A DNA stretch of 64,000 bases from a virus. Numbering within the stretch: the stretch's first letter is position 1; every line of letters starts with the position of its first letter. Both the position numbers and the translations under genes were made by a program. The stretch is taken from positions 1-64,000 of the IMG/VR virus record IMGVR_UViG_3300043409_002042, one strand, 5' to 3'. Under the pieces are notes generated by a model that was not told where the DNA came from, made no database searches, and was given only the letters and a program-made list of their open reading frames with translations. This document shows, piece by piece, positions 42,573 to 59,659 of the stretch.

Positions 42573-43253
42573 ATGACTACCTCAAACAAACCAATCGAAG
42601 CCCCGGATGGCGGCCTGCCGACCCCGGATCGTGAGCGGGCGATGGTCCCGTGGGACAAGCGCCTGGGTGGCACTGGCGAGCCGCCTGATGAGATTCGGGC
42701 TTCAGCCCGCGCGATGTGGGAGGGCGTGCCGAATTCCTCTGTGGCGTCGGTGTCGGATGAACTCAAGGTGCCAGCGGCGCAGATTCGGGCGTGGAAAAAC
42801 CAGGGCGGCTGGGTGAAGACCCACCTTCGCATGCCCGGAATGTCGCAGCGCGCGCATGAGGCTGCGGACCGCTACACCGAGCAGGTGGCCGAGGCTGTTG
42901 GTGCTGAGCCTGGCGCGAAGGTGCGCGATGCGGATGTGCCGCCTGCGCTGGCGGATAGCGTTGCTCGGTCGGTGTCCGACGACCTGGCGCTTGATGTTCG
43001 CGGCCAGCTGCTGAACCGTCACCGTCAGGAGTGGGGTGTGCCGCGCAAGCTGGCCTATGAGGCCGTGAAGTCTGCGGGCACTCCAGGTTTCGACCCGGTG
43101 GCGGCGTTTGAAAAGGCCAAGCTTGCGAAGATCACCGCCGAAACGCTGACCCTGGTCCAGGGCGGCGAGCGCAAGGCTTATGGGCTCAAGGACGGCGATC
43201 TGGACACCACTGCCGTGCTGATCGACCGCGGCGGCGATGGTGGTGGCGAATGA
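42573..43253 (+). CDS. Putative terminase small subunit
   Basis: N-terminal HTH (SVASVSDELKVPAAQIRAWKNQGGW), helical core, GERKAYGL; first gene of packaging block. Confidence 0.6.
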   Translation: MTTSNKPIEAPDGGLPTPDRERAMVPWDKRLGGTGEPPDEIRASARAMWEGVPNSSVASVSDELKVPAAQIRAWKNQGGWVKTHLRMPGMSQRAHEAADRYTEQVAEAVGAEPGAKVRDADVPPALADSVARSVSDDLALDVRGQLLNRHRQEWGVPRKLAYEAVKSAGTPGFDPVAAFEKAKLAKITAETLTLVQGGERKAYGLKDGDLDTTAVLIDRGGDGGGE

Positions 43254-44755
43254 GCAGCGCGGTTGCGCCGGGGCTGGAGCTGCGCCCGGCTGCTGAGCTG
43301 ATCCCGTATGCGCGGAACTCGAACACGCACCCGCAGTCGCAGCTTGAGAAGCTGAAGGCTTCGCTGCGCGAGTTTGGCTGGACCAACCCGGTTTTGATTG
43401 ATGAGCGCGGCGGCGTGGTGGCTGGGCACGGTCGCCTGCTGGCCTATGGGCAGATGCTCGAGGCCGGTGAGACTGTGCGGTTCCCGAGTGGGGCGGCGAT
43501 CCCGGCTGGCCGTGTGCCGGTGCTGTCGTGCTCGGGGTGGTCGGAGGCGCAGAAGCGGGCCTATGTGATTGCCGACAACAGAATTGCGTCGGATTCTTCG
43601 CTGGATGAGGAGGTGTTGGCGCTGGAGCTGGCGGACCTGAAGGCGCTGGGTTTTGACCTGTCGCTGACCGGTTTGGATGCTGTCGAGCTGGGCGACTTGC
43701 TGGGCGGAGGCGATGACGAGAATGGCGGCGGCGGGCATGGTGATCCGGATTTAGTGCCGGATGTGCCGGAGGTCCCGGTGTCGCGGCGCGGCGACGTGTG
43801 GATTGTTGGTGGTCACCGCGTGATGTGCGGCTCGTCGCTGGAGCCCAATGATTGGGATGTGCTGATGGCGGGCGAGTCCGCCGACTGCGTGTTCACGGAT
43901 CCGCCATACAACGTGGCGATCGGCGAGAAGAACGATGCCATGGCGAAGGCGCAGGGGCGTGGAAAGAGCAAAACCGGCGGCATCTTGAACGACTCGATGG
44001 GCGATGGCGAGTTCTACAAGTTCTTGCTGTCGATGTACCGCTGCGTTCTGGAGGTCATGAAGCCCGGGGCGTCGATCTACGTGTACCACGCTGACAGCGA
44101 GGGGATCAATTTCCGGACGGCTTTCCGTGATGCGGGGTTCAAGCTGCAGAGCTGCCTGACCTGGAAGAAGAACACGTTTGTGCTGTCGCGCTGGGACCAC
44201 CACCCGATTTCTGAGCCGTGCCTGTACGGCTGGAAGCCTGGGGCTGGCCACAAGTGGTACGGTGGCCGCAAGCAGAGCACGTTTGTGGACCTGGGGGATG
44301 GCAGTCCGTTTCACAAGCAGGATGACGGCACGTGGGCGGTGACCTGGGGGGATCAGGTGTTCGTGGTGTCGGGTGATGCGCGCGTGGAGGTTTTGGCGTC
44401 GTCGATGATTTCTGAGCCCAAGCCTGCGCGCTCGGACCTGCACCCGACGATGAAGCCGGTGATGCTGGTGCGTCGGCACCTGCGAAACTCGGCGCAGCCT
44501 GGTGATCTGGTGGTGGATGCCTTTGGCGGCTCGGGTACGACGATGCTGGCTGCTCACGAGGAGCGGATGTTGTCGCGGCTGATGGAGCTGGATCCGAAGT
44601 ATGTCGATGTGATCTGCCGCCGGATGTGGGCGTTCTCGGGTCTGCGCCCGGTGCATGCCGTGACTGGGGAGCCGTTCCCTGGCGAGGGTGAGTTTCGGTC
44701 TGCTGACCTGGTGGTGGGCCCTTCGGATGCTGCCGATGATGGGGGGCCGTTCTGA
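43250..44755 (+). CDS. ParB-like domain + N6A/N4C DNA methyltransferase
   Basis: LIPYARNS..EFGWTNPVLID..AGHGR; FTDPPYN; HPTMKP; VVDAFGGSGTT. Confidence 0.92.
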   Translation: MSSAVAPGLELRPAAELIPYARNSNTHPQSQLEKLKASLREFGWTNPVLIDERGGVVAGHGRLLAYGQMLEAGETVRFPSGAAIPAGRVPVLSCSGWSEAQKRAYVIADNRIASDSSLDEEVLALELADLKALGFDLSLTGLDAVELGDLLGGGDDENGGGGHGDPDLVPDVPEVPVSRRGDVWIVGGHRVMCGSSLEPNDWDVLMAGESADCVFTDPPYNVAIGEKNDAMAKAQGRGKSKTGGILNDSMGDGEFYKFLLSMYRCVLEVMKPGASIYVYHADSEGINFRTAFRDAGFKLQSCLTWKKNTFVLSRWDHHPISEPCLYGWKPGAGHKWYGGRKQSTFVDLGDGSPFHKQDDGTWAVTWGDQVFVVSGDARVEVLASSMISEPKPARSDLHPTMKPVMLVRRHLRNSAQPGDLVVDAFGGSGTTMLAAHEERMLSRLMELDPKYVDVICRRMWAFSGLRPVHAVTGEPFPGEGEFRSADLVVGPSDAADDGGPF

Positions 44756-45102
44756 TGGCGGCCGCCGAGGATGCTGGTGGTGGTGCGCCGACGCCGGCGG
44801 ACGTGGAGCGCCAGAAGCGGCAGGAGAGGCGCAACCGTCGGTTTGGTGTGGTGCTGGTGCAGATTGAGGGTTTTCCGTTGGTGGACCCTGGGCGGCGGCT
44901 GGTGTTTGACGTGAGGTCGTCGGAGTCGCGGGCGCGCAAGATGGTGGCGCGGATGGCGGTGCGGATGCCGGAGCACCGGTGGTCGCACGAGATGATGAAG
45001 TCGGAGGACATCAAGCGGCTGAGGCGTGCGCCGTTCATTTCGCCGGAGGCTGGGATGCGGGTTTCGCTGCACGACGCGAGGTCGGTGTCTGTGGGGTCGT
45101 GA
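44755..45102 (+). CDS. Basic hypothetical protein
   Basis: TGATG coupling; ends in the late box. Confidence 0.55.
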   Translation: MAAAEDAGGGAPTPADVERQKRQERRNRRFGVVLVQIEGFPLVDPGRRLVFDVRSSESRARKMVARMAVRMPEHRWSHEMMKSEDIKRLRRAPFISPEAGMRVSLHDARSVSVGS

Positions 45103-45111
45103 CCTAACAAT
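45096..45111 (+). promoter_or_regulatory. Late-promoter box GTCGTGA-cct-AACAAT, 6 nt before ATG 45118
   Basis: Recurrent motif; no Shine-Dalgarno. Confidence 0.75.
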
Positions 45112-45117
45112 CGGTTT

Positions 45118-48100
45118 ATGAACGCACCTGTCCCCCCTCGTTTGGTTTTATTTTTGAAGGCGCTGCCTGGCGCGAAGATTGCGCACCAGTCTGGGTACGC
45201 GCTTTACGGCGGCCGGTGGCACAAGATCACGCCGGACAAGCCTGCGCCGAAGGGTGCGCCGGTGGCTGCGCATCCGGAGGCTGGTGGTGTGCATGCTGGG
45301 GCGAAGCACTTCACGGATGAGCAGTGGGCTCAGTTGAAGCTGCCGCCTGAGAATGTGAATGCTGGAAGCCACAATGCGGCGGTCGACAAGCTCAAGCAGA
45401 TGAGCGAGGCCGGGCACGTCACGGGGATTCTTGGCGCTGGTTACGGCGTCAACACCTATGGCAAAAAGCAAGCGATCATTGCCAACCAGTTGCTCAAGCT
45501 GCACGGAAGCCAGCACCAGGTGGTGTCTGGGCAGAAGGCTGGTGAGCATGCGGCGGTCCAGGGCACGGCAGGCGCCGCGCTGGCCCACAAGGATGCGGTG
45601 CTGCAGGAGGCGATCGACCACCTGAAGGCCGACGAGAAGCAGTCTGGCATGCCTGCTGGCGAGAAGGCGGAGGACGCTGCGCTGGTGTCCAAGCTGGAGT
45701 CAGCGGTGGCGGTGCAGCCGGTGGTGACGTCCGTCGCGGATCAGGTGATGGCTGCTGGCCTTAAGGTGTACACCGCAGCAAACGGTGACGTCTACGTTGG
45801 TTCGGCTTTCAGTGACAACCCGAAGATTTTCACGGATGCGCAGAAGGCGGATGCCGTGATTGCAAAGCTAAAGGATGCGGGGCTTGTTGGCCTTAAGTCT
45901 GGTGCTTTTGTCAAGGTTCAGGCGGCGGCAAAGGCTGCTGAGCCAGCGCAGCCTGCAAAGGACGCCCCTAAGGTTTCGTCTTCAAAAGACTTTTCTGTTG
46001 GTGGTGTGAATTTTGTTGCCGTAAAGAAGCAAAGTCCGAACGGCGAATACTGGATTCCGTCCGTCAAGGAAACCGGTCAGGAAATACCGCACCAGCATTA
46101 CGGCTCTATAAAAGGCATGTGGAGCGATTTATCGCAAGTCGCAAAGATAAAAGGCGACAAGTTCGCTCAGAGTGTGGGGGTTCAGCAGCCGGTGGGTGCT
46201 GCCCCTGGCACGCTGACCGCCGACCAGCTGGGCAAGCTGCAGAGCATCCCCTGGTTCAAGTTGAAGCTACCGGACTCGAACACGAACGCCAAGAGCCACA
46301 ATGCGGCGTTGGCGAAGATTGAGGCCATGGCGTTTGCTGGTGATGTTGCTGGGTTGCAGGCGTTTGTGGCTGCGAAGGCTGGGTCCAAGCAGACGTATGC
46401 GAAGAAGCAGGCTTTGACGGCGCAGACGGCGCTGGCTGCGCTGGAAGTTTCTGATGGTGGACAGACCGGCGGTGCTGGTACCCCTCCGGCTGCTGGCACG
46501 TATGAGCACAATGGTTCAACAAAGCCGATCGGCCTCAAGGATGATGCGTCTGGCACGCTTTCGTCGGCTGCGACTGGTTGGTTGCATGGGTACCAGTGGG
46601 GCGTTGATGCGCCTGATGGTAATGTGAAAAACCCGCTGCCTTCGGATGCGGTCCTGGTGGAGTTGGGGACTTACGTTGGCAAGTCTCCCGTGAAGTTGTA
46701 CCGGGCAGTTTCTCTTGATTCAAACGATGACGGCAAGCTGATTGAGTCTTGGTCGCGTTTTGAGAAGTATGCCAGCGACCTTGTTCAGTCGGGCGCTGAG
46801 CTTGGTCAAAAAATGAAGGTTATATCAAAGGTTTTTGATCCTTCGGACATCGTTGTTGACACGACCAAACTGCCCAAGAAGTTTCATGATGCGAACGATT
46901 CCGGGACTCAGGCGGAGGTGGTCGTCGCTCTTGGTGCGTTCAAGGCGCATATGGCCTCTGTTCGTGGCGGTGGTGTGGCGGCTGCGGTGCCCGCCCCGCC
47001 GGGCCTTCCTGCTGGTTGGGGTGGCGCGATCAATGGCGTGGCGACCAAGCCGGGGCCCGGTGGTGGGATTGTCGACAAGAACGCGGCTGGCCTTGGTTGG
47101 TTTGCGATTGCGCACGATGAGGGCAAGGCGGCGGCGCTGAAAGGAAAGTTTTTCCCGACGCAGCAGGCTGCGATTGATGCGCTGGAGGGGGCGGTGCCTG
47201 TCCCTGTGGCTCCCGCGCCGAAGCCCACCCGGACCACCTCACAAGTGTTCCACAACACCACCAAGGGCCACAGCAAGTCGTGGTCGGTGTCGGTCAGTGG
47301 CTCCAAGTTGAAGACCGAGTACGGCAAGATCGGCGGCACGCAGCAGTCGACGGTGAAGGATTTGGGGACGCCGGATGCCGCCAAGGCGGCGATGGCGACG
47401 CTGATCAAGCAGAAGACCTCGAGTGGGTATGTTTCGAAGGGGGCGGGTGTGCACGTCCACGGCGCCGCCGCTGCGGCTGAAACCGGCCCGAAGGATGGCG
47501 ACACCAAGCAGGGCGCGGACGGCACGCTGGTGTTCAAGGATGGTCACTGGCACAAGCAGGGGAAGTTTGAGCTACCGAAGTTGACTGATTTGTTGGCGGC
47601 TGAGGAGGCCGCCGGTGGTGCGTGGGATTATGAGCCCAGCGACCCGGCTTTTAATGGTCATCCGACTCTGATGATGCACGCGCCTGGTGGCAGCACAGTC
47701 TACATTGCCAAGACCGATGATGGGTACCAGGTTGGTGAGTTTGACGCCGACGTCAACCCGGTGGGCCTGAACGACTTTGGCAGCCTGCCAGACGCCGTGG
47801 CGCACCTCAAGTCTGGCGCCCATGGCGGCGCTGTGCCGCCCGATTCCGAGCTTGCTAAGTTTGGGGATGCTGGGTGGACGCCTGGTTCGGTCCCCACAGG
47901 CTGGGATGCCATACAGCCTCCTGATTTCAGCGACGACAAGACCAAATGGGGCAAGGTTTACAGCGATGCCGCAGTCAGTTTGCTTGCCCACATGAAAGCT
48001 GGTGGCAGCTTGTCGGAGTACGTGACGGCGCACAAAACGGGGGCTAAGGCGGGCGGGTTCACGGTCAAGATCAACGGTTTCAAACTTGTGATGACGCCAA

Positions 48101-49974
48101 GTACAACCGAGGCCCGCCGGGTCAAGATGATGGCGTTCATCAAGCAGTTGCAGGAAATGAAGCCGGGTAAAACGGCTAAGTCGGCGGCAAAGAAAGTGTC
48201 GCCACCGCCCCCCGCTTTCGTCGACGGCGTGCAGTCCATGGACACCTGGACGCAAACCGGCCCGCAGGCTGGCAGCAACCCGGGCGGCAAGTTCCGGGAT
48301 CCTGACGGTCAGGAGTGGTACTGCAAGTTCCCAGCGGATGCCGACACGGCCAAGTCTGAGGTGTTGGCGGCCAAGCTGTACGGTCTGGCTGGTCTGGCTG
48401 GGCAGGACGCCAAGCTGGTAAACAAGGGTGGCAAGATCGGTATTGCGAGCCGCTGGCAGGATGTGTCGAAGGCGTCCAGCGCGAAGGCTTTGACCAAGGT
48501 GCCGGGGGTGATTGATGGGTTTGCCACCGATGCTTGGCTGGGCAACTGGGACGTGGTCGGCATGGGCATGGATAATCTGCAGATCGGGGGCGATGGCAAG
48601 GCTGTGCGTGTGGATGCCGGCGGCAGTCTGGAGTATCGGGCCCAGGGCGAGAAGAAGCCGTTTGGCTCCAAGGTGGAAGAGATCGACACGCTGCTGGATT
48701 CGGGGAAAAACGCGCATTCGGCGGCCGTGTTCTCGGGGATTACCAAGGCGGACATGACGGCCAGCGTGGCGCGCGTGCTGAAAATCAGCGACGTTGCCAT
48801 TCGCGCGATGGTGAACAGTTTCGGCCCTGGTGATGCAGATGCCAAGGCAAAGTTGGCCGACACGCTGATTGCCCGCAAGAAGGACCTTGCGAAGCGGTTT
48901 CCTGCCGCGGCGAAGGCCAAGAAGGCGGTTGTGTTCAAGCCGGAGAAGCTCAGCGAGCCTCCGTCGTTCCTGAATTGGGGTGGTTCTGGCAAGTCGGGCC
49001 CGTCGAGCAAGGAGTTTGTCAACAATGCAAACGATGACGCTGTGCAGGCGATCTTTGCGGCTGCGAAAACCGGGGACCTGAAAGCGATTGAAGGTTTGAA
49101 GTTGCCGGTGTTCGACAAGGACACGGGCCAGCAGACCGGGATGGTGGGTGCGCTGCAGCACCCCAGTCAGCACGTCAAGGGCTACGCGCAGCAGGCGATC
49201 AACGAGATCAACTACCAACTGAACCCACCCAAGCGGTTCAGGTTTGATGGCGGACACCCGTTGTCGGCGCTGAATGCTGCATTCCCTGCGCACGGCGGGG
49301 CGCAAAGCAGCGCGTGCGCGCAGAAGGTGGCAAAGTTCATCCTTCTTGGGGAGCCCGGTGTCGTCAAGTTGGCCGATGTTGGGTTGCCTGAGAAGATCAC
49401 GCATGCTGAGGGTGGGGGCGCGTTGTCGGCGTCAACTTATGCGGCGGCATCCAAGGCGGCATTCGCCAAGATGCCGGAAACGCAGAAGCAGGCGATCAAA
49501 GGTTACACGGGTAGTTCGTACCATGCGATGAATGGTTCGCTGTGGTCTGGTAACCCATCGGGTGCTGCCAAGGCTGCGGGCGAAGCCTTAAAAACGCTGG
49601 GCCATGACATTCAGCCCGGCACGGTTTTGTCTCGGAAGATCAGCCTTCACGGATCTGACCTTGAAGCGTTACTCAAGTCGCAGGGTAAGATTTTGCAGGA
49701 GCCTGCTATCATGTCAACGTCTATCCGCCCGTCGTCGTGGAGTGGCAACGTCCATCTCAAGATGCACGTCGGCCCTGGTGTGAAGGGTTTGTGGGTTGGG
49801 CATGGTTCTGCTGCGTCTGGTGGTGCAATGTCAAAGCACGCCGGTGAGGACGAGATGATTTTGCCGCCCGGTACCCGGTTGCTGATTCTTGGCTCAAGGA
49901 CTGGTGGTAAAGATGCGGACGGTTTTGGCGGCAGTACATCGCACGTTGTTGAGTGCGTAATCTTGCCAACGTGA
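45118..49974 (+). CDS. Large multidomain effector: ART-like + WGR + HipA/PI3K-like kinase + VIP2-like ADP-ribosyltransferase
   Basis: KLYRA..ESWS..QAEVVV; HSKSWSVSV..TEYGKIG..KTSSGY; GSNPGG..WYCKF..SEVLAAKLY..DAWLGNWD..RVDAGGSL; YTGSSY..MNG.L..LSR..MSTS..EDEMILPPGT. Confidence 0.8.
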   Translation: MNAPVPPRLVLFLKALPGAKIAHQSGYALYGGRWHKITPDKPAPKGAPVAAHPEAGGVHAGAKHFTDEQWAQLKLPPENVNAGSHNAAVDKLKQMSEAGHVTGILGAGYGVNTYGKKQAIIANQLLKLHGSQHQVVSGQKAGEHAAVQGTAGAALAHKDAVLQEAIDHLKADEKQSGMPAGEKAEDAALVSKLESAVAVQPVVTSVADQVMAAGLKVYTAANGDVYVGSAFSDNPKIFTDAQKADAVIAKLKDAGLVGLKSGAFVKVQAAAKAAEPAQPAKDAPKVSSSKDFSVGGVNFVAVKKQSPNGEYWIPSVKETGQEIPHQHYGSIKGMWSDLSQVAKIKGDKFAQSVGVQQPVGAAPGTLTADQLGKLQSIPWFKLKLPDSNTNAKSHNAALAKIEAMAFAGDVAGLQAFVAAKAGSKQTYAKKQALTAQTALAALEVSDGGQTGGAGTPPAAGTYEHNGSTKPIGLKDDASGTLSSAATGWLHGYQWGVDAPDGNVKNPLPSDAVLVELGTYVGKSPVKLYRAVSLDSNDDGKLIESWSRFEKYASDLVQSGAELGQKMKVISKVFDPSDIVVDTTKLPKKFHDANDSGTQAEVVVALGAFKAHMASVRGGGVAAAVPAPPGLPAGWGGAINGVATKPGPGGGIVDKNAAGLGWFAIAHDEGKAAALKGKFFPTQQAAIDALEGAVPVPVAPAPKPTRTTSQVFHNTTKGHSKSWSVSVSGSKLKTEYGKIGGTQQSTVKDLGTPDAAKAAMATLIKQKTSSGYVSKGAGVHVHGAAAAAETGPKDGDTKQGADGTLVFKDGHWHKQGKFELPKLTDLLAAEEAAGGAWDYEPSDPAFNGHPTLMMHAPGGSTVYIAKTDDGYQVGEFDADVNPVGLNDFGSLPDAVAHLKSGAHGGAVPPDSELAKFGDAGWTPGSVPTGWDAIQPPDFSDDKTKWGKVYSDAAVSLLAHMKAGGSLSEYVTAHKTGAKAGGFTVKINGFKLVMTPSTTEARRVKMMAFIKQLQEMKPGKTAKSAAKKVSPPPPAFVDGVQSMDTWTQTGPQAGSNPGGKFRDPDGQEWYCKFPADADTAKSEVLAAKLYGLAGLAGQDAKLVNKGGKIGIASRWQDVSKASSAKALTKVPGVIDGFATDAWLGNWDVVGMGMDNLQIGGDGKAVRVDAGGSLEYRAQGEKKPFGSKVEEIDTLLDSGKNAHSAAVFSGITKADMTASVARVLKISDVAIRAMVNSFGPGDADAKAKLADTLIARKKDLAKRFPAAAKAKKAVVFKPEKLSEPPSFLNWGGSGKSGPSSKEFVNNANDDAVQAIFAAAKTGDLKAIEGLKLPVFDKDTGQQTGMVGALQHPSQHVKGYAQQAINEINYQLNPPKRFRFDGGHPLSALNAAFPAHGGAQSSACAQKVAKFILLGEPGVVKLADVGLPEKITHAEGGGALSASTYAAASKAAFAKMPETQKQAIKGYTGSSYHAMNGSLWSGNPSGAAKAAGEALKTLGHDIQPGTVLSRKISLHGSDLEALLKSQGKILQEPAIMSTSIRPSSWSGNVHLKMHVGPGVKGLWVGHGSAASGGAMSKHAGEDEMILPPGTRLLILGSRTGGKDADGFGGSTSHVVECVILPT

Positions 49975-49986
49975 TGGGGGATTCCA

Positions 49987-50481
49987 ATGACTGAAAAACT
50001 AGACCGCCACACGGACCCCTCGGGTCTGGTGGCTTCGCTGGGCGAGGCAGGTGGGCCTCAGTTCCTGGGGGACACTGCTGTTGTCGAGCGCCTGGTGCGC
50101 CAGTTTGTGGCCGACGTGGTCACACGCTACGACGAGGTGGGGCATGGCGTGCTGACGCCGAACGATGCGGCGAATGCGGACCGTGAGGCTTGTTTCCGTA
50201 TGGCGCATGTGTTCTCGGGCCTGGATCCGGCCTACACCGCCATGCGCGGCTGGACAGGGGCTGGGCTTGCGGCGCACCTGCGCAACTCGATGGCCGCCGA
50301 GCTGGCCGAGTCCGATGATGATGCCAATGTGATCGCCCAGGCGTTTGCCGTGCTGGTGCATGCGGTCTACGACGCCCTGCGCGTGTCGGCCACGGCCAAC
50401 GAGGCTTCGGTGATGCAGACCGTTGAGCGCGCCGTGCAGTCGCTGTCGCGGTCCCTTGTGGGGGTGGTGGGCAATGACTGA
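49987..50481 (+). CDS. Helical acidic hypothetical protein (candidate immunity/chaperone)
   Basis: Directly downstream of the ART C-terminus. Confidence 0.6.
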   Translation: MTEKLDRHTDPSGLVASLGEAGGPQFLGDTAVVERLVRQFVADVVTRYDEVGHGVLTPNDAANADREACFRMAHVFSGLDPAYTAMRGWTGAGLAAHLRNSMAAELAESDDDANVIAQAFAVLVHAVYDALRVSATANEASVMQTVERAVQSLSRSLVGVVGND

Positions 50482-51442
50482 ACCACGGATGCCCGAGGTT
50501 GGACAGAAAATTGAGTTCCTGTCCGATGCCATGACCGACAAGGGCCCGGCCACGGGTTCGGTGTCTCGCGTGAAGCCCACCGTGGACGGCTACTACATCA
50601 CCGTCGATTTCGGCGACAGCCAGGAGTCGTTCTCTTGGGACGACATGCGCGAGCAAGGTGCCGATGTGCGCGGCGACTTGTGGCTAATCAAGGCCCACGT
50701 CCGGGGCCACATGCGCGGCTCGGATTACGTCTGCCCGTATGAGCGCGGCACCGGTGGGCATCCGCCAACGCCTGCGCACCACCCGCAGCGCAACGACGAC
50801 GGCAAGCCTGTTTTGATCACGCACCCCAGCCACCCGTCGGCCCCCAGCACCTGGGACATCCCGGATGCCGTGGCAACGTTTGTGCCGGGTGGTGACTGCC
50901 CGGCGCGGCTCAATGGCGTGTCGTTCACCGCTTGGCGCGACCACCCGACCACGGCGGAAGGCTGGGATTACGTGGACGGTGTGGATGATGACCTCGCTGA
51001 GCCGCCGTTCCAGGTCAAGCCCGGGAAGTCGATCGGCGCGGGCGTGGTGATTGAGGAGCCGGATGGCCGTGTGTGGCTTTGCGCGCCATCCAACCAGTTT
51101 GGTGGCTACCGGGCCACGTGGCCCAAGGGAACGGTGGAGGACGGGATGTCGTTCCAGGCGTCGGCAATTCGGGAGGCGTTTGAGGAGACTGGCCTCAAGG
51201 TGAAGATCACCGGGCACCTTGGAGACTTTGAGCGCACCACGTCGGTGGCCAGGATGTACCGCGCCGTCCGTGTTGGCGGGACGCCTGTGGCTTGCGGCTG
51301 GGAAAGTCAGGCCGTGCATCTGGTGCCGCGTTCGATGCTGTACGAGCACTTGAATGGCTCGGCTGATCACCCGATCGCCGAGAAGATCGGCGCTGGACCT
51401 GCGCCGAAGCAACCCGAGAAGCAAAAAAGCAGCTTATTTTGA
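50474..51442 (+). CDS. Nudix hydrolase with N-terminal extension
   Basis: Nudix box WPKGTVEDGMSFQASAIREAFEETGL. Confidence 0.9.
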   Translation: MTEPRMPEVGQKIEFLSDAMTDKGPATGSVSRVKPTVDGYYITVDFGDSQESFSWDDMREQGADVRGDLWLIKAHVRGHMRGSDYVCPYERGTGGHPPTPAHHPQRNDDGKPVLITHPSHPSAPSTWDIPDAVATFVPGGDCPARLNGVSFTAWRDHPTTAEGWDYVDGVDDDLAEPPFQVKPGKSIGAGVVIEEPDGRVWLCAPSNQFGGYRATWPKGTVEDGMSFQASAIREAFEETGLKVKITGHLGDFERTTSVARMYRAVRVGGTPVACGWESQAVHLVPRSMLYEHLNGSADHPIAEKIGAGPAPKQPEKQKSSLF

Positions 51443-51880: not shown

Positions 51881-53605
51881 ATGTCGAAAATCCCCGCCGT
51901 TTTTGTTTCCACTGATTTGGTCAAGGCCCATGTTGCGGGGTATACGCGCAAAGATGGGATTGTTGTGAAAGAGCACGATGACAAGAGGGCTGCTGCCGGG
52001 TCCAAACCCACCGGTGCCTCCGCACCCAAAGCCGTGACAAAAAATGAGGGCTACGGATTTCACGGGGAGGCAAGCCGTGAGTTCTTGAGTCGTCGTCATG
52101 GCGCCGACGATTACTACGGAAAATCCACCGAGAAAGATTGGAAGGATGCCCATTCTCATGCGGACACGAAGCTCCACGAGGCTGCTGATCATTTGGTGAG
52201 TGCTGGTCACTTTGAGAACCACCAGCAAGCCGGAGATTACTTGGACTCAACGCACGGGCGGCACTTGCACGATGGCGCTTCGTTTCATGACGGGGATGTG
52301 TCAAAGGTGCCTTGGCTGGGGCGCGATGTGAAGGCGTACAAAAAGAAGGCGGACATGCCGATGACAAAGTCTCTGGTTCTCGTGACCGGTGATCTTGCCA
52401 AGGCCCATGTGGATTCGTACACCCGCAAGGACGGCGTCGTGGTGCAGGCGCATGACGATAAGCGGGCGGCTGCGCAGGCGAAGCCGATGACCGGCGTAAA
52501 TCGCCGCGCTGTAAAGAATTTGAAGGAATATCACAAGGCTGACGCAAAATGGCTGAAAAGCTCTTTAGCCTCAGCCCTCTCCGTGGGCGACACCGAAACG
52601 GAGCATGGAAAACCCATGACGTATGGGGATGTGAAATCTCACATGCACACCATGCGATCGCAGCTTGGTGGTGATGCTTCTCATGCCCAGCACTTGGAGC
52701 ATGCGCAGTACGCCTTGAATCAATCCATGGGCGGCGATAGCGCTCCATTGTCTGAAAAGCATGCAAAGCTGATCGGCGCAGCGCTTTCCGGAAAAACAAA
52801 AATGGACGAGGATGGAATGGTGCGGCATGCAGCCGTGTCCGGTGGCGCCGACAAGCCCACCGCTGGCGCGCCCAGGGCCTCTCAGAAGAAGTTTCAGGTT
52901 CGCGACAACGCTGGCAATGTTCACAAAGTTTTTCACGGCGAGAATGCGGAGTATGAGGCCGGCAATCACGCGCGCGAAATGAATAAAAAGGGTGGTCGGT
53001 ACAGCGTGCGCAACGTGACACCGGTAGGTGAGCCTGCTGGGTCTGGTGGCGCCGCCAAGCCCGCCGCCGAGTTCGGCGTGCATCACTCTAAGCTGAAGGT
53101 GGGTGACCACCTCTACGACAAAAACGGCCAGAAGGTGGATGAGGTAGATGGCTTCTCTCGCGGCATCAACAGCCAGAGGGTACACACTCGCTCTGGCTAC
53201 ACACATGGCACGCGCAGCGATGGGTTTTTGCCCGGCCTATCAAACAAGAAGCCATCCGCCCCAAAGGCTGCGAAGCCGACCGGCTCTGCAGCACCCGCAA
53301 AAATGATGAATGTCGGAACTGAAAAGTGGCCTCAGATGGCCAAGACCAGCGAAAAGCTATCCAGCAAAAACAACGATGGATTCACTCACCACGTGGGTGG
53401 GTTCAAAGCTCCTGACCGGGACGAGCACAGAAATCTTGTTCGTGGAAGCGATCACTTAATTCACCACGAAGGAAAGCTGTTCGGCTTCACGGGAAAGAGT
53501 GGCAAGAACATGAAAACCGGCGAGGATTCGTTCGAATATTCGGCCGGAGATCATCAAGAGCACCGAGCATGGGTTACTCGCTCTGGTCATCTGATGAACG
53601 ACTGA
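51881..53605 (+). CDS. Lys/His-rich modular protein, putative internal head protein
   Basis: Two copies of DLxKAHVxxYTRKDGxVVxxHDDKRAAA; Ala/Pro/Lys linkers. Confidence 0.65.
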   Translation: MSKIPAVFVSTDLVKAHVAGYTRKDGIVVKEHDDKRAAAGSKPTGASAPKAVTKNEGYGFHGEASREFLSRRHGADDYYGKSTEKDWKDAHSHADTKLHEAADHLVSAGHFENHQQAGDYLDSTHGRHLHDGASFHDGDVSKVPWLGRDVKAYKKKADMPMTKSLVLVTGDLAKAHVDSYTRKDGVVVQAHDDKRAAAQAKPMTGVNRRAVKNLKEYHKADAKWLKSSLASALSVGDTETEHGKPMTYGDVKSHMHTMRSQLGGDASHAQHLEHAQYALNQSMGGDSAPLSEKHAKLIGAALSGKTKMDEDGMVRHAAVSGGADKPTAGAPRASQKKFQVRDNAGNVHKVFHGENAEYEAGNHAREMNKKGGRYSVRNVTPVGEPAGSGGAAKPAAEFGVHHSKLKVGDHLYDKNGQKVDEVDGFSRGINSQRVHTRSGYTHGTRSDGFLPGLSNKKPSAPKAAKPTGSAAPAKMMNVGTEKWPQMAKTSEKLSSKNNDGFTHHVGGFKAPDRDEHRNLVRGSDHLIHHEGKLFGFTGKSGKNMKTGEDSFEYSAGDHQEHRAWVTRSGHLMND

Positions 53606-53659: not shown

Positions 53660-56260
53660 ATGTCAAACACCAACCAGATAAAAATCAGCTTGCCGCGCCT
53701 GCATGATGCCCAGCAGGCGTGTTTGGCTGGTGCTCGGCGGTACAACGTGGTTGTCGCTGGTGAGGATGCGGGGAAAACGGTTCTTGGGATAGAGGTCTTG
53801 TTGACCAGCCCCAAGGGGGCACTGAACAGCCGGCGGCCGGTGGCCTACATCCATCCGACTGATGCTGGCGCCGATGAGGCGCGCCGTCAGGTGGTGCGCT
53901 GCCTGGGGCAGCTGATCAAACGGCGGGTCAATGCCCGCAGGATTGAGTTGACCACCGGAGGTCTGATCGACTTCATTTCGCTCGAGCAGAGTACCGATGT
54001 GTTTGAGCAGTACGGCCTGATCGTGGTCGATGACGCATGGCAGATTGATGGACTGCTGAGGCTTTGGGAAGATGACCTGTCCACCTGCCTCAACCAGTAC
54101 ACCGGCACGGCCTGGGTGCTCTCTGGTGCCTACGGGCGGCGCAACGACTTTTACCGGATCTGGCAGTTGGCCGAGGAAGGCCACCACCGGCTGTGGTCAA
54201 GCCACCGGATGGACAGCTTTTCCAACCCGCATCTGCCTGAGCAGACCCGGGATGCCGCGATGGATGTCACTGCCGTGGAGTACCAGCAGCGGTTTGCCGC
54301 CGAGTTCCTGGATGTTGCCGTTGAGTTTTCTGCTGAGCAGCGCCTGGTGCTGCCCGGCGAGACGTTTGTGCAGTGGTGCGAGCGGCTTGAGGAGACTGGG
54401 CTCAAGGTGGATGGTCACCCCTTCACTTTGTCCAACCGCTCCGCAATGCGGTTCATTTACGAGCTGATCCCGTCCAGTGTTGATGATGCCTTTGGTCACA
54501 TTGATGTCATTATGAAATGCACGCAGGTGGGCTTTACCGTGTTTGAAATGCTGGCGATGGTCTACTTGGCGCTCAAGTTTGCGCCGGCCAAGATCGGCAT
54601 GTTCATGCCGTCGCAGATGCTTGCGTCGGGTAAGTCCAGTGAGCGTTTTCTGCCGATATTGCGCACCATCCCGGATGTGTACGCCCTGATCACGGACGAC
54701 AAGAAGCCCGGCAAGAAGGGCGAGGGTAACGTGCTGATCCGAAACCTGGGCAGCAGCCGTTTTCACTTCCTGTGGACCACTGGTAAAACCGCGACCGAGT
54801 CGTTTCCTATGGACGTCGTCAGCTTCGACGAGGTGCAGGAGATGGCGATCGCGGACATGGAAAAGACCCGCGAGCGTATGTCGGCGTCGGCGCTGCGCTA
54901 CACCCTGATGGGCTCCACTGCCAACTGGCCGGATTCGGACATCCACTGGTGGTACAAGCGCGGCACTCAGCACCAGTTCCACACCGAGTGCCCGCACTGC
55001 GGCACCCACCAGGTGCTGGACGAGCATTTCCCGGAGTGCATTGGCTACGACGAGGATTCGCGCGATTACCGGTACCGCTGCCACGAGTGCCACGGCTGGA
55101 TTGACGACCCGCAGCGTGGAGAGTGGCGGGCGAAGAACCCCGATGCGCGGATCCGCAGTGTGCACTTTCCGCAGTTTCTGTCGCCGACGATCTCGCCGCG
55201 AGAGATCATTGAGGCCTACCACCAGGCCGACGACATGAAGAACTTCTACAACCGGAAGCTCGGCAAGCCATATACCGACCCGTCTCAGGTGCCCGTGAAC
55301 CTGGAAATGCTGAACGAGTGCGCCAAGCTGGGCATGGAGGCGGGCCTGGTGTGGAAGTCTCGGGCGCAGGGTGCGTTCATGGGGCTGGACCAGATGGGCA
55401 GCTTTATTGTGGCCATACTGGCCGAGCGGATGCGCGACGGCCGGATGGCGATTGTGCATGTGGAGTACATCTTTCGGGCGCCAACAAAGGACGACCCTGA
55501 CGCCAGCCCCTGGGACCGCGCCGATGAGCTGATGGCAGCCTTTGGTGTGCAGTGCTGCGTGGTGGAGACGCTGCCAAACTACGACTCGGCGAAGTCGTTT
55601 GCGCGCCGGCACCACGGGAAGGTGTTTCTCGCGCAGTACAAAAAGATCGACGACGACATGCTGGCCTGGGGCGACACGCTGAAACTGAACTCGAGCGAAA
55701 ACCGCACGGATGAGGACATGCGCGACCGGTTCACGGTTTCGCTCGATCAGTACAAGGTCATGCAGATGGCCTTGGCGCGGATTCAGAAGCGCATGACGCT
55801 GTTCCCGGACCCCGACGGCCTGGTGCAGGAGGTGCTGGAAAAGGGTAAGCGCCGGATGTCGGCTGTTTGCAAGGAATACGCTTTCTTCCACTTCACGCGC
55901 ACGGCGCTGGTCGCCGAGAAGGACGACGAGCAGAAGGTTTTCAAGCGGCGCGTGGTGAAGGTTGGTATCGATCCACACACATCGTATGCCTACATGCTTT
56001 TGGTGGTAGCCTGGTCGCGCGCTCACGGTACCAGCATGTTCATCTTGCCAGATGCCGACAAGCCTGTGGGTTCGCCGGCGGCCAAGGCTGTTGTGGGGCA
56101 GATGGGGCAGTCGATCATGAGCCAGCTGGAGACCTTGGAGTCGAACGTCTGCGGCCGCTGCGCATTCCGAGACGAAGCCAGTGGCCGGTGCTCGGAAATG
56201 GAGGCGTTCACCCAGGAGAAAGACCCGGGGTGTTATGCTTTTAGCTCGGCTGGGGGGTGA
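53660..56260 (+). CDS. terL: Terminase large subunit (GpA-like) with extra N-terminal ATPase-like domain
   Basis: MKCTQVGFT, VSFDEVQEM, GST, CPHCG..YRCHEC, FYNRKLGKPY, FMGLDQ, DPH. Confidence 0.88.
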   Translation: MSNTNQIKISLPRLHDAQQACLAGARRYNVVVAGEDAGKTVLGIEVLLTSPKGALNSRRPVAYIHPTDAGADEARRQVVRCLGQLIKRRVNARRIELTTGGLIDFISLEQSTDVFEQYGLIVVDDAWQIDGLLRLWEDDLSTCLNQYTGTAWVLSGAYGRRNDFYRIWQLAEEGHHRLWSSHRMDSFSNPHLPEQTRDAAMDVTAVEYQQRFAAEFLDVAVEFSAEQRLVLPGETFVQWCERLEETGLKVDGHPFTLSNRSAMRFIYELIPSSVDDAFGHIDVIMKCTQVGFTVFEMLAMVYLALKFAPAKIGMFMPSQMLASGKSSERFLPILRTIPDVYALITDDKKPGKKGEGNVLIRNLGSSRFHFLWTTGKTATESFPMDVVSFDEVQEMAIADMEKTRERMSASALRYTLMGSTANWPDSDIHWWYKRGTQHQFHTECPHCGTHQVLDEHFPECIGYDEDSRDYRYRCHECHGWIDDPQRGEWRAKNPDARIRSVHFPQFLSPTISPREIIEAYHQADDMKNFYNRKLGKPYTDPSQVPVNLEMLNECAKLGMEAGLVWKSRAQGAFMGLDQMGSFIVAILAERMRDGRMAIVHVEYIFRAPTKDDPDASPWDRADELMAAFGVQCCVVETLPNYDSAKSFARRHHGKVFLAQYKKIDDDMLAWGDTLKLNSSENRTDEDMRDRFTVSLDQYKVMQMALARIQKRMTLFPDPDGLVQEVLEKGKRRMSAVCKEYAFFHFTRTALVAEKDDEQKVFKRRVVKVGIDPHTSYAYMLLVVAWSRAHGTSMFILPDADKPVGSPAAKAVVGQMGQSIMSQLETLESNVCGRCAFRDEASGRCSEMEAFTQEKDPGCYAFSSAGG

Positions 56261-57961: not shown

Positions 57962-59659
57962 ATGCAAAACGCACTCAACACCGCCCACAACGCCGCCGCC
58001 CCCCAAAATGAGCGGGTTGACGCCTTGCGGGAGGCGCAATCGGTGGCTATGCCGTCGTCGGTGCCGGACATGCTCCCGCTGGTGCAGTTCGTTGCCGAGC
58101 AGTACCAGGAGCAGGAGTTCTACAAGTCGCTGCAGCGCCCGAACGTGATCCCGTTTCCTTCGCGTGCCGTGGCCGAGAAAAAGCCGGGCATGCAGTCTCT
58201 GGTGATCAACGACACCTATGGCAACGCCATGGGCGAGTGGCGTGATCGCTGGTCAAACCTCAGTTTTGACATGCTGCGCCAGATGGTCGACCAGACCCCG
58301 GTGTTGGGATCGGTCGTCATGACCCGCATCCGGCAGGTCAAGCGGTTCTGCCGGGTGCCGGACCTTGGCAAGGGCCCGGGGTTCCAGATCCGGCTCAAGG
58401 ACCCGAATGCCAAGCTGGGCAGCGACGAGAAGCAGACCGTGGCCTTGCTGCAGGACTTCTTCACGCACAGCGGCTGGGAGAAGAACCCTCGCCAGCGTGC
58501 GCGCCTGCGGCGCGACAACTTCTCGAACTTCATGGCCAAGTCTGTGCGGGACTCGCTGATTCTGGATTCTGCGCCGATTGAAACCGAGTACAAGCGCGAC
58601 AAGCGCCTTGGGATTGATGGCTTCTATGCTGTCGACGGTGCCACCATCCGGCTGTGCAACGAGGACGGCTACCGAGGCGATGACGAGATTTTTGCTCTGC
58701 AGGTGGTCGATGGGCAGATTCGGTCCTGCTACACGCACGACGACCTGATTTACGTGCCCCGCAACCCGCGCACCGATGTGTTGGTGGCTGGCTACGGCAT
58801 GTCCGAGACTGAGTTGCTGGTTCGTGTGATCACGGGCTTCCTGAACGCTTTTACCTACAACACAAAGTACTTCGATTCGAATGCGATCCCCAAGGGCTTG
58901 CTGCACCTCACGGGCGATTACGGCCAGGAGGACATGGTGGCGTTCAAGCGCTACTGGAACTCAATGGTCAAGGGCATCAACAACGCCTGGACCTTGCCTG
59001 TGCTGGTGTCGAAGAACCAGGAGTCGAAGGCCGCTTTTGAGAACTTCGGTGTTGAGGTCAACGAGATTATGTTTTCGAAGTGGATGGTGTTTCTTACTTC
59101 GATTATTTGTGCGATTTACGGGATTGCTCCTGACGAGATTAACTTCGAATCTTTCACGTCGGGAACTTCGTCGCTGTCTGGGTCAGACACAGAAGAGAAG
59201 CTGATTCATTCCGCAGACAAAGGCTTGCGCCCTCTCTTGTCTCATTATGAGGACATTTTCTCCGACTATATTGTTGGGGAGTTTGGCGACAAGTATTGCT
59301 TCCGGTGGACGGGTCTTGACGAGGAAGACCCTCAAACAGCGTGGCAAAAAGACCAAAAGCTGATGACTTTCAATGAAGGACGGAAGGCTCGAGGGCTTGA
59401 AGCCATCAAAGGAAGTCTTGGCGATTGTCCTTTGGACCCCGCTCTCATGGGGCAATGGTCGCAGATCAATCAAGCTGAGCAGGCCGATTATGGTGACCCT
59501 GGCGCTGAACAAGGCCAAGGAAGTCAGCCCGGCGATGATCAAAATGTTGATCCAGGCCAAGATCCTGCTGGTCCACAGGATGCAGAAGACGATCAGACCG
59601 ATAACGGACCTAGTATGCAGAAGTCCTTTGGCCTGCCTGTCTTTCGGGTTGACCCGTGA
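57962..59659 (+). CDS. Portal protein
   Basis: VDGATIRL, YVPRNPRTD..GYGMSETE, NAIPKGLL, ICAIYGIAPDEI, TFNEGRKARGL. Confidence 0.9.
   Translation: MQNALNTAHNAAAPQNERVDALREAQSVAMPSSVPDMLPLVQFVAEQYQEQEFYKSLQRPNVIPFPSRAVAEKKPGMQSLVINDTYGNAMGEWRDRWSNLSFDMLRQMVDQTPVLGSVVMTRIRQVKRFCRVPDLGKGPGFQIRLKDPNAKLGSDEKQTVALLQDFFTHSGWEKNPRQRARLRRDNFSNFMAKSVRDSLILDSAPIETEYKRDKRLGIDGFYAVDGATIRLCNEDGYRGDDEIFALQVVDGQIRSCYTHDDLIYVPRNPRTDVLVAGYGMSETELLVRVITGFLNAFTYNTKYFDSNAIPKGLLHLTGDYGQEDMVAFKRYWNSMVKGINNAWTLPVLVSKNQESKAAFENFGVEVNEIMFSKWMVFLTSIICAIYGIAPDEINFESFTSGTSSLSGSDTEEKLIHSADKGLRPLLSHYEDIFSDYIVGEFGDKYCFRWTGLDEEDPQTAWQKDQKLMTFNEGRKARGLEAIKGSLGDCPLDPALMGQWSQINQAEQADYGDPGAEQGQGSQPGDDQNVDPGQDPAGPQDAEDDQTDNGPSMQKSFGLPVFRVDP

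Follow-up and report, generated by a model that had tools for sequence, protein, structure and literature searches.

This locus raises the question of what a phage does with a single gene coding for kinase-like and ADP-ribosyltransferase (ART)-like domains in one giant polypeptide, and in which cell that polypeptide acts. The window, by which we mean the whole stretch of 64,000 nucleotides analysed, is positions 1 to 64,000 of IMG/VR virus record IMGVR_UViG_3300043409_002042, a 90,573-base phage genome assembled from a freshwater metagenome. The gene is a single uninterrupted open reading frame (ORF) at 45118–49974 on the plus strand, and an earlier note, made from the sequence alone, had described its product as a giant late protein with two ART-like domains, a WGR domain and a HipA/PI3K-like kinase, delivered with the virion and possibly cut into separate enzymes; the single ORF and all of the motifs quoted in that note are where it placed them. 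We favor, with a probability of roughly 60%, the reading that the product is a phage polyvalent effector, one polypeptide of several host-modifying enzymes carried in the virion to the next host. New here are two partners encoded downstream: a small helical protein, p164, which is predicted to cap the active site of the C-terminal ART and co-varies with it, and a Nudix gene, which is nearly always present alongside and in some loci is fused to the kinase.

The C-terminal core

The core of the protein is composed of a kinase-like domain, a linker and an ART, with the following coordinates.

45118–49974, plus strand: putative polyvalent kinase-ART effector ORF, 1618 amino acids, with at least 400 relatives at E ≤ 1e-3
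48226–48924, plus strand: atypical protein-kinase-like domain, residues 1037–1269 (AlphaFold2 pLDDT 88.2 and fold matches)
49015–49377, plus strand: linker and helical region, residues 1300–1420, conserved alongside the kinase, with its end within the predicted p164 interface
49435–49971, plus strand: predicted Alt/VIP2-type ART, R1506/S1533-T-S1535/E1577-D-E1579 (Pfam PF03496, PHROGs and PDB profile)

Profile matches and invariant residues confirm the assignment of the C-terminal domain as a predicted Alt/VIP2-type ADP-ribosyltransferase of the arginine-style (ExE) kind, and this part of the earlier claim of two ART-like domains stands. Pfam PF03496 scores 29.4 bits against the whole protein and 35.7 bits against the fragment (cut-off 23.4), and the PHROGs matches are to the 'ADP-ribosyltransferase exoenzyme toxin' and 'Alt-like RNA polymerase ADP-ribosyltransferase' families (phrog_3895 and, 'Alt-like', phrog_802). 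Searched against the PDB, the family profile has its best match in Lmo0066 (8za7_B, 3.5e-7), with others in Vis (2.3e-5), SpvB, VsdC and C3. The motifs VLSRKI, IMSTS and GEDEMI are found at 49624, 49708 and 49843, and R1506, S1533, S1535, E1577 and E1579 are invariant in all 19 aligned relatives.

The kinase proposed in the earlier note is borne out as a fold, and its membership of the HipA and PI3K/PI4K Pfam families is not. An AlphaFold2 model of residues 1030–1310, made from a 22-row alignment, has a pLDDT of 88.2 and a pTM of 0.80, and its best match in the VIA structure search, which is independent of Foldseek, is CtkA (Z 16.3, root-mean-square deviation 3.2, 207 aligned residues, 17% identity), with further matches to CotH (13.9), MavQ (13.0), PI4K-II alpha (12.8) and HipA (11.9); all 50 of the listed VIA rows, from Z 16.3 to 7.5, are kinases. 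Foldseek places CtkA first (E 3.2e-7), then HPK1, CotH, HipA, actin-fragmin kinase and Vps34, with 36 matches at E ≤ 1e-3. From these models the domain is a predicted bilobal kinase, HipA/CtkA-type in manner and outside the HipA and PI3K/PI4K Pfam families: the giant protein has no match to HipA (PF07804, PF20613) at E ≤ 5 and no Pfam match to PI3K/PI4K (PF00454), and among 22 relatives there are below-threshold matches to HipA_C in four and HipA_2 in two. Distant Atlas clusters gave leads only, with HipA_2 in 46% of members and PI3_PI4 in 12% of the members of one cluster. Pfam, NCBIfam and PHROGs yielded no family for the kinase piece, and it matches no solved chain by sequence: the family profile searched against PDB sequences returned ART chains only, as its long rows carried the ART, and no kinase chain. 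A T7 gp0.7-type kinase turned up in none of the search lists, and no direct comparison with it was made.

The conserved residues of the domain suggest that it looks active. GSNPGG (residues 1052–1057), K1070, E1081, N1143, D1145, N1153 and D1166 are invariant or nearly so in the 22- and 19-sequence alignments, and the motifs GSNPGG, WYCK, KSEVL, DAWLGNWD and RVDAGG lie at 48271, 48316, 48352, 48529 and 48607. We take K1070 and E1081 to be the ATP-binding pair, the 'GN-x-D...DN' stretch to be a HipA/PI4K-II-like catalytic loop, and D1166 to bind metal, roles assigned by comparison with kinase motifs and not by superposition. The domain is common: HMMER against 1.84 billion cluster representatives gives 4620 matches at E ≤ 1e-3 and 924 at E ≤ 1e-30, and it matches 526 IMG/VR stretches. 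We also note that some giant proteins have three to five copies of a kinase-like domain (P0132, 3416 amino acids; P0159; P0193).

Indirect evidence for delivery in the virion

Four indirect lines of evidence (a promoter motif, an N-terminal tag, the annotation of a homologue, and fusions to head proteins) agree on virion cargo, which is the best reading of them, and the delivery proposed in the earlier note stands to that extent. Two of these lines are features of the locus itself.

45096–45111, plus strand: promoter-like motif GTCGTGA-N3-NANNNT, ending 7 nucleotides before the ATG of the giant ORF
45151–45162, plus strand: F-L-K-A tag, residues 12–15, preceded by a leader of variable length; candidate propeptide or cargo signal

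The motif GTCGTGA-N3-NANNNT is present ten times in the window (at 1406, 8559, 9280, 38350, 42550, 45096, 51845, 57940, 62223 and 63403), against 0.30 expected, and 14 times in the 90.6-kb genome, always on the plus strand; the copies beyond the window are at 68868, 72387, 77788 and 86895. Most copies are 10–35 nucleotides before an ORF start, which suggests a phage-specific promoter with very short leaders. In addition to the giant gene, copies precede the portal gene (57940), the protease-scaffold-capsid block (68868) and a virion structural gene (86895). The 'late' expression ascribed to the giant gene by the earlier note is an inference and not an observation.

The tag belongs to a pattern, hydrophobic-x-K-[SA], that 161 of 169 family members have within their first 40 amino acids, a length in which 0.18 occurrences would be expected; the leader before it varies in length, and conserved sequence follows it. 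The scaffold has an excess of this pattern, with six copies where 0.9 would be expected, and so does the protease, with six where 1.3 would be; the pattern is also present at capsid residues 26–29 and near the N-termini of the Nudix protein and of two other proteins of this genome, a 574-residue protein and a helicase-like one. It is a candidate head-protease site or cargo signal, at which cleavage may take place.

The GenBank record of Yersinia phage fHe-Yen8-01 labels gp129, its homologue of the giant protein, 'phage particle associated protein', and gives gp130 and gp131, the two genes that follow, the label 'particle associated protein'. Over the aligned parts the giant protein is 57% identical to gp129, p164 is 34% identical to gp130, and the Nudix protein is 43% identical to gp131; a literature search on the phage name found no paper behind the annotation. 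Finally, among predicted protein structures, the kinase model finds matches in phage proteins that carry the names portal, head morphogenesis (MuF), ADP-ribosyltransferase and Nudix.

Several features would also fit a takeover enzyme that is never packaged and acts only in the producing cell, like T4 ModA/ModB or T7 gp0.7: virion evidence for the giant protein is not direct, a ParB-methyltransferase gene and other non-structural genes are just upstream, and a cargo has no need of a built-in inhibitor such as p164. We regard such an enzyme as unlikely, since it would not account for the particle annotation of the homologue together with both of its downstream partners, for a tag present in nearly the whole family and common to the head proteins, for fusion of the kinase fold to portal and head-morphogenesis proteins elsewhere, or for a promoter motif common to the portal and protease genes.

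The suggestion that the protein is cut into separate enzymes finds no backing here. As a polyprotein it would be divided by the head protease into kinase, ART and WGR enzymes, and the genome does encode a head maturation protease (phrog_1028) and the giant protein does have a candidate site motif at its N-terminus; the portions of PMC5512222 available to us also describe P1 DdrB as processed before packaging. The same portions describe the N4 virion RNA polymerase and others as packaged whole, and Pfam scans find no peptidase domain in the giant protein. The giant protein has five candidate protease motifs where 7.3 would be expected; four of them are internal (520, 1116, 1208 and 1518) and lie within the ART-like, kinase and ART domains and not between them. 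Because the count is below expectation and the internal copies are inside domains, the sequence offers no support for cleavage into separate enzymes, and we think a polyprotein quite improbable.

Two downstream partners: p164 and a Nudix hydrolase

Two genes follow the giant ORF.

49987–50481, plus strand: p164, small helical partner (164 amino acids), predicted ART active-site cap
50423–51442, plus strand: Nudix hydrolase ORF (Pfam PF00293, E 1.1e-12); true start uncertain, fold at about 51032–51340

The partners were surveyed in 79 IMG/VR loci with the kinase domain, drawn from the best 80 of the 526 matching stretches. Fifty-nine of the 79, plus the window, were kept for the p164 analysis by requiring a post-kinase ORF tail of 280–450 amino acids and at least 700 nucleotides downstream, and 51 loci entered the distance comparison once L050 and identical pairs had been dropped. 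A member of the p164 family is directly downstream in 58 of 59 complete-tail loci, the window included, and in single-linkage BLAST clustering all 59 C-termini form one cluster, as do 58 of the 59 small ORFs (adjusted Rand index 0). An association from co-detection of ART and p164 by single-sequence phmmer (19/4/15/36, Fisher p 3e-5) was rejected, the clustering having made clear that it measured only divergence.

A model of residues 1030–1618 in complex with p164 has an ipSAE of 0.79, and the best of three controls has 0.01; a level of 0.79 is reached by 58 of 80 solved complexes and two of 110 mismatched pairs, a rough calibration for which our own alignments were used. At least 85% of contacts are common to the runs, and p164 has a pLDDT of at least 86. 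In the model p164 contacts the end of the linker (1379–1421) and the ART only, with no contacts in the kinase, and the predicted interface includes the catalytic residues R1506, S1533–S1535, E1577 and E1579 of the ART and the invariant D10 and W89 of p164. Evolutionary distances in p164 and ART are correlated (r 0.81; partial r 0.73 given the kinase; 51 loci, permutation p 5e-4), and the partial correlation of p164 with the kinase is 0.46; ART and p164 evolve faster than the kinase, with mean distances of 0.67, 0.76 and 0.46, respectively. These models suggest that p164 is an inhibitor or guard that caps the ART active site. It has no detectable relation to known immunity families in Pfam, NCBIfam, PHROGs or the PDB, and its profile matched no natural PDB chain; matches to designed helical repeats were read as helical composition and not kinship.

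Of the 69 loci with at least 1500 nucleotides of downstream sequence, 62 have a Nudix gene, either fused or located in the next 2 kb. Kinase and Nudix are in one ORF in four loci (L045, L075, L080 and L082), and in eight others the Nudix gene, located after p164, has its own copy of the kinase (L046, L052, L058, L059, L065, L066, L070 and L081). A Nudix-kinase fusion is also seen among the short homologues (P0253). The Nudix ORF in the window has an L-I-K-A tag at 50684.

This arrangement invites comparison with a toxin-immunity module that serves to compete with or exclude other phages or uninfected kin, as opposed to taking over the infected host. ART and p164 outpace the kinase in divergence and co-vary, p164 is an adjacent small gene whose product is predicted to cap the active site, and the closest solved relative by sequence, 8za7, is a Listeria ART of a toxin-immunity pair. 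We nonetheless give such a module little credence: there is no secretion or delivery domain besides the phage particle, the gene is within a lytic-type myovirus morphogenesis region, and the kinase and Nudix partners would be without a role.

The N-terminal region and the exchangeable middle

Upstream of the core are two copies of a helical unit, followed by three recognizable cassettes or motifs and a region conserved in part of the family.

45301–45507, plus strand: helical unit copy 1, residues 62–130 (family hidden Markov model (HMM) E 1.3e-32)
46234–46443, plus strand: helical unit copy 2, residues 373–442 (family HMM E 5.5e-27)
46483–47013, plus strand: small ART-like cassette, residues ~456–632, R529/S544/Q598-x-E600 (motifs and a weak fold match)
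47248–47442, plus strand: WGR domain, residues 711–775 (Pfam PF05406, E 5.5e-8, 33.3 bits against a cut-off of 22)
47485–47556, plus strand: G-x-L-V-F-K-D-G-H-W-H-K short motif, residues 790–813 (motif mapping)
47605–48207, plus strand: region of residues 830–1030, matched in 22–53 of 119 relatives

The helical unit is indeed duplicated: its two copies align in BLASTP with 54% identity over 35 amino acids (E 2e-10), and the family HMM finds both, with a weak third match at residues 1305–1330 (E 0.0068). The unit was present in 189 of the 265 family proteins then collected, with two to five copies in 162 of the 189. A profile of residues 1–161 gave no genuine match in the PDB; a designed protein that it matched with four sub-threshold pieces was rejected as chance.

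The small ART-like module is the first of the two ART-like domains claimed, and for it the case is one of likelihood, at moderate strength. Its motifs LYRAV, ESWS and TQAEV are at 46696, 46744 and 46906. The module is rare, with seven homologues among proteins of 889–2832 amino acids in a targeted search, and matches over residues 481–640 in three to four of the 119 relatives; R529, S544, Q598 and E600 (Y-R, S, QxE) are invariant in all eight small-module sequences. The best AlphaFold2 model has a pLDDT of 63.2 and the other four 39–46. In the VIA search the best Z is 4.9, with 53 of 48,161 chains at Z ≥ 2; at least 40 of the 50 listed rows are ART-superfamily proteins, judged by their titles, and the top rows include ExoS, the Lmo0066 ART, CPILE-a, VIP2, Certhrax, ART2.2 and C3. 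Per-domain AlphaFold2 and Foldseek, one of the checks that the earlier note had proposed, returned the kinase fold, and for this module a best Foldseek E-value of only 0.48, with Vis, ExoS and pertussis S1 as top rows. Pfam gave no match for the module, nor did tblastn against 50,697 phage records, and the presence of ADPrib_exo_Tox in 20% of the members of distant Atlas clusters is a lead only. With moderate confidence, the models and motifs point to a probable small ART of the R-S-(Q/E)xE kind. The module is also found outside the polyvalent family, in a metagenomic protein of 1235 amino acids (P0266) with AAA ATPase, intein and homing-endonuclease Pfam domains.

The WGR domain that had been proposed, a module of the DNA-sensing type, is above the Pfam cut-off, as listed, and matches PDB 2ra8 (E 0.0011); it is an optional cassette, present in 18 of the 79 related loci. 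The stretch around the short motif (residues 783–815) recurs at several places in relatives by BLAST, and a related GRWHK is present at residues 32–36 of the giant protein. Pfam and PHROGs hold no family for residues 830–1030.

The large size, the long low-complexity linkers, and the repeated helical units and short motifs could suit a mainly structural or ejection particle protein with enzyme-like domains as relics, a very improbable account given that the kinase and the C-terminal ART keep their catalytic residues unchanged in 19–22 diverse relatives and that the middle region is exchanged with a freedom that a scaffold would not tolerate.

The family and the polyvalent class

The relatives at E ≤ 1e-3 are 889–2832 amino acids long, and many are on contigs of about 90 kb. 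Among 119 listed relatives, residues 1041–1600 are matched in 113–117 and residues 41–120 in 112–114, and the stretch of 160–1040 is patchy. In the middle, relatives have cassettes such as ART-PolyVal PF18760 (P0020), GNAT (P0015) and an extra ART (P0085). The N-terminus of about 150 amino acids and the kinase-ART C-terminus are conserved, and the middle consists of shuffled cassettes; this copy is distinguished by its second helical unit and by the small ART-like cassette, which is rare.

Polyvalent proteins are giant phage and plasmid proteins with disparate domains that are predicted to enter the cell with the DNA (Iyer et al. 2017, PMC5512222; also PMC9503650, both in the portions available to us). 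The giant protein is like them in joining unrelated enzymatic and nucleic-acid-binding domains in one phage-encoded polypeptide, in its shuffled cassettes, in the class-typical domains of its relatives, and in its predicted delivery with DNA. It is unlike those described in the available portions of PMC5512222 in its core of a CtkA/HipA/PI4K-II-like kinase and an Alt/VIP2-type ART and in its constant p164 and Nudix partners, and it has no zincin-like metallopeptidase, an accessory trait of the class: Pfam scans of the whole protein and of its pieces found no peptidase family. The kinases of those portions are of a Ser/Thr/Tyr group that is without a C-lobe, from Verrucomicrobia and Bacteroidetes. 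The earlier note did not know this architecture as characterised; its class is in print, and the present combination of domains is not described in the portions of PMC5512222 to which we refer, so that the protein is of the polyvalent class in the broad sense and a variant beyond those described there.

Genome and phage context

The same genome codes for TerL, portal, protease, capsid and sheath, at the following positions.

53660–56260: large terminase
57962–59659: portal
68891–69784: head maturation protease (phrog_1028)
69781–70413: putative scaffold
70429–71883: major head protein (capsid)
78918–80630: tail sheath

The tail sheath, together with the other morphogenesis genes, identifies the phage as a tailed phage of the myovirus type. 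Its capsid protein is 72% identical to that of Pseudomonas phage Touem01, 66% to that of Morganella phage Mecenats66, and 40–45% to those of PHB04, ST4, Dolphis, Jeremy, fHe-Yen8-01, phiT5282EW and ECML-606-1. A relative of the giant protein is present in eight of these nine capsid-related isolates, the exception being PHB04. The available portions of the Mecenats66 and Touem01 papers make no mention of ADP-ribosyl; 'kinase' is absent from those of the former and is confined to an unrelated context in those of the latter. Short contigs from three other freshwater runs are identical to parts of the giant gene, the parts that they do not cover being uninformative, and no RNA datasets were among the listed holders of giant-gene sequence.

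Several other genes are of note. The large terminase has 866 amino acids and its PHROGs match begins at residue 228, leaving an N-terminal extension outside the match. The second gene upstream of the giant ORF (43250–44755) joins a ParB-like domain to a DNA methyltransferase (phrog_498, E 3e-135), and this fusion recurs upstream in several related loci. The 574-residue protein (51881–53605) is preceded by the promoter motif, many of the related loci encode a relative, and our searches gave no family match for it; it has two copies of a 'K-A-H-V-x-x-Y-T-R-K-D-G' leader, at residues ~13–26 and 172–185, and the Nudix protein has a similar 'K-A-H-V' start. An ORF of 1519 amino acids, from 63425 in the window to 67984 in the genome, starts with a helicase match (phrog_62) and has the promoter motif and an L-L-K-A tag at residues 12–15; it may be a second large cargo protein. 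A minus-strand ORF of 610 amino acids within the giant gene (47572–49404) is taken as a shadow frame of GC-rich coding DNA.

Proposed mechanism

In the reading that we favor, the giant gene would be transcribed alongside the head genes from the shared promoter motif, and the hydrophobic-x-K-A tag would direct the protein into the prohead, where the head protease would trim the tag. The protein would then travel in the virion and enter the next cell with the DNA, where its kinase and ARTs would modify host proteins, by phosphorylation and ADP-ribosylation respectively, in the service of takeover or counter-defence; the WGR domain may hold the protein on nucleic acid. In the producing cell, p164 would sit on the NAD-binding cleft of the ART and keep it silent, and the Nudix enzyme would be a working partner of the kinase.

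Several points weigh against this reading. Presence in the virion and injection are not shown directly, and the Yersinia particle annotation is a database note. The promoter motif also precedes the helicase-like 1519-residue ORF, so that a 'head regulon' is not clean, and the protease site at the N-terminal tag is a candidate only. Of the domains, the first ART-like module has a weak model and no structural match reaching Z 5, and the modelled kinase is without a Pfam match and has lipid kinases among its nearest folds, so its substrate is not fixed by the fold. As to p164, its co-variation with the ART could come from adjacency in the DNA instead of binding, and since solved ART-immunity complexes exist, part of the complex score could be memory; this last concern is weakened because p164 matches no natural PDB chain.

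A bolder version of the cargo reading, which we put forward tentatively as a possible and not a probable one, has the effector packed together with its p164 cap and the Nudix enzyme as a self-guarded, three-part cargo, with the cap lost on ejection, so that the ART would become active in the new host only. The kinase and Nudix enzyme, repeatedly found fused in relatives, would then act as a pair on a nucleotide-derived molecule, such as an immune signal based on NAD or ADP-ribose, rather than on proteins. If true, a counter-defence device borne by virions would be widespread, spanning thousands of phage protein clusters.

Comparison with known systems

T4 Alt is a head-packaged, injected ART and, with a few other cases, the main known example of injected enzyme cargo. 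The giant protein is like Alt in its R-S-ExE catalytic type, in its PHROGs 'Alt-like' match, and in being encoded with morphogenesis genes, and its N-terminal tag could presumably act like the Alt capsid-targeting sequence. It is unlike Alt in that Alt is a single enzyme and the match covers about 100 residues (E 3.6e-7); we know of no kinase, WGR domain, second ART, inhibitor partner or Nudix partner for Alt. By analogy, the giant protein would probably work like T4 Alt multiplied: a probable cargo uniting several modifying enzymes in one chain, with a partner as guard.

The closest structural relative of the kinase is Helicobacter pylori CtkA (3akj/3akk/3akl), an atypical Ser/Thr kinase that reportedly is discussed in papers on H. 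pylori conjugative elements; the giant protein differs in its low sequence identity to CtkA, in having no sequence-level PDB match, and in that CtkA is stand-alone. HipA, the type II PI4-kinases, CotH and MavQ belong to the same fold group, and we take the GN-x-D...DN catalytic loop and D-x-G magnesium site to resemble those of HipA and PI4K-II. Unlike the HipA toxin kinases, the locus has no HipB-type antitoxin context, and to our knowledge bacterial hosts lack phosphoinositides.

As in ART toxin-immunity pairs (Lmo0066 ART-ARH, 8za7; Tre1-Tri1, 6drh) and MuF-fused phage toxins, the ART is followed by a small, fast-evolving partner with predicted occlusion of the active site; unlike immunity proteins, p164 has a homologue in a Yersinia phage that is annotated as particle-associated, which is unusual for an immunity protein. 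The WGR domain is of the PARP1 type by its Pfam match, and unlike that of PARP1 it is not joined to a PARP catalytic domain.

We know of no bench data for the kinase-ART family, which is large (its kinase domain alone matches 4620 clusters and 526 IMG/VR stretches) and is without a Pfam, NCBIfam or PHROGs kinase model. The locus offers a defined and testable system, in which one probable cargo protein unites kinase and ART and comes with a Nudix partner and a predicted cap for its active site, and the cultured relatives include phages of Pseudomonas putida and P. syringae, hosts that are convenient in the laboratory. The targets of the giant protein would show how this group of ~90-kb myoviruses begins infection or evades defence.

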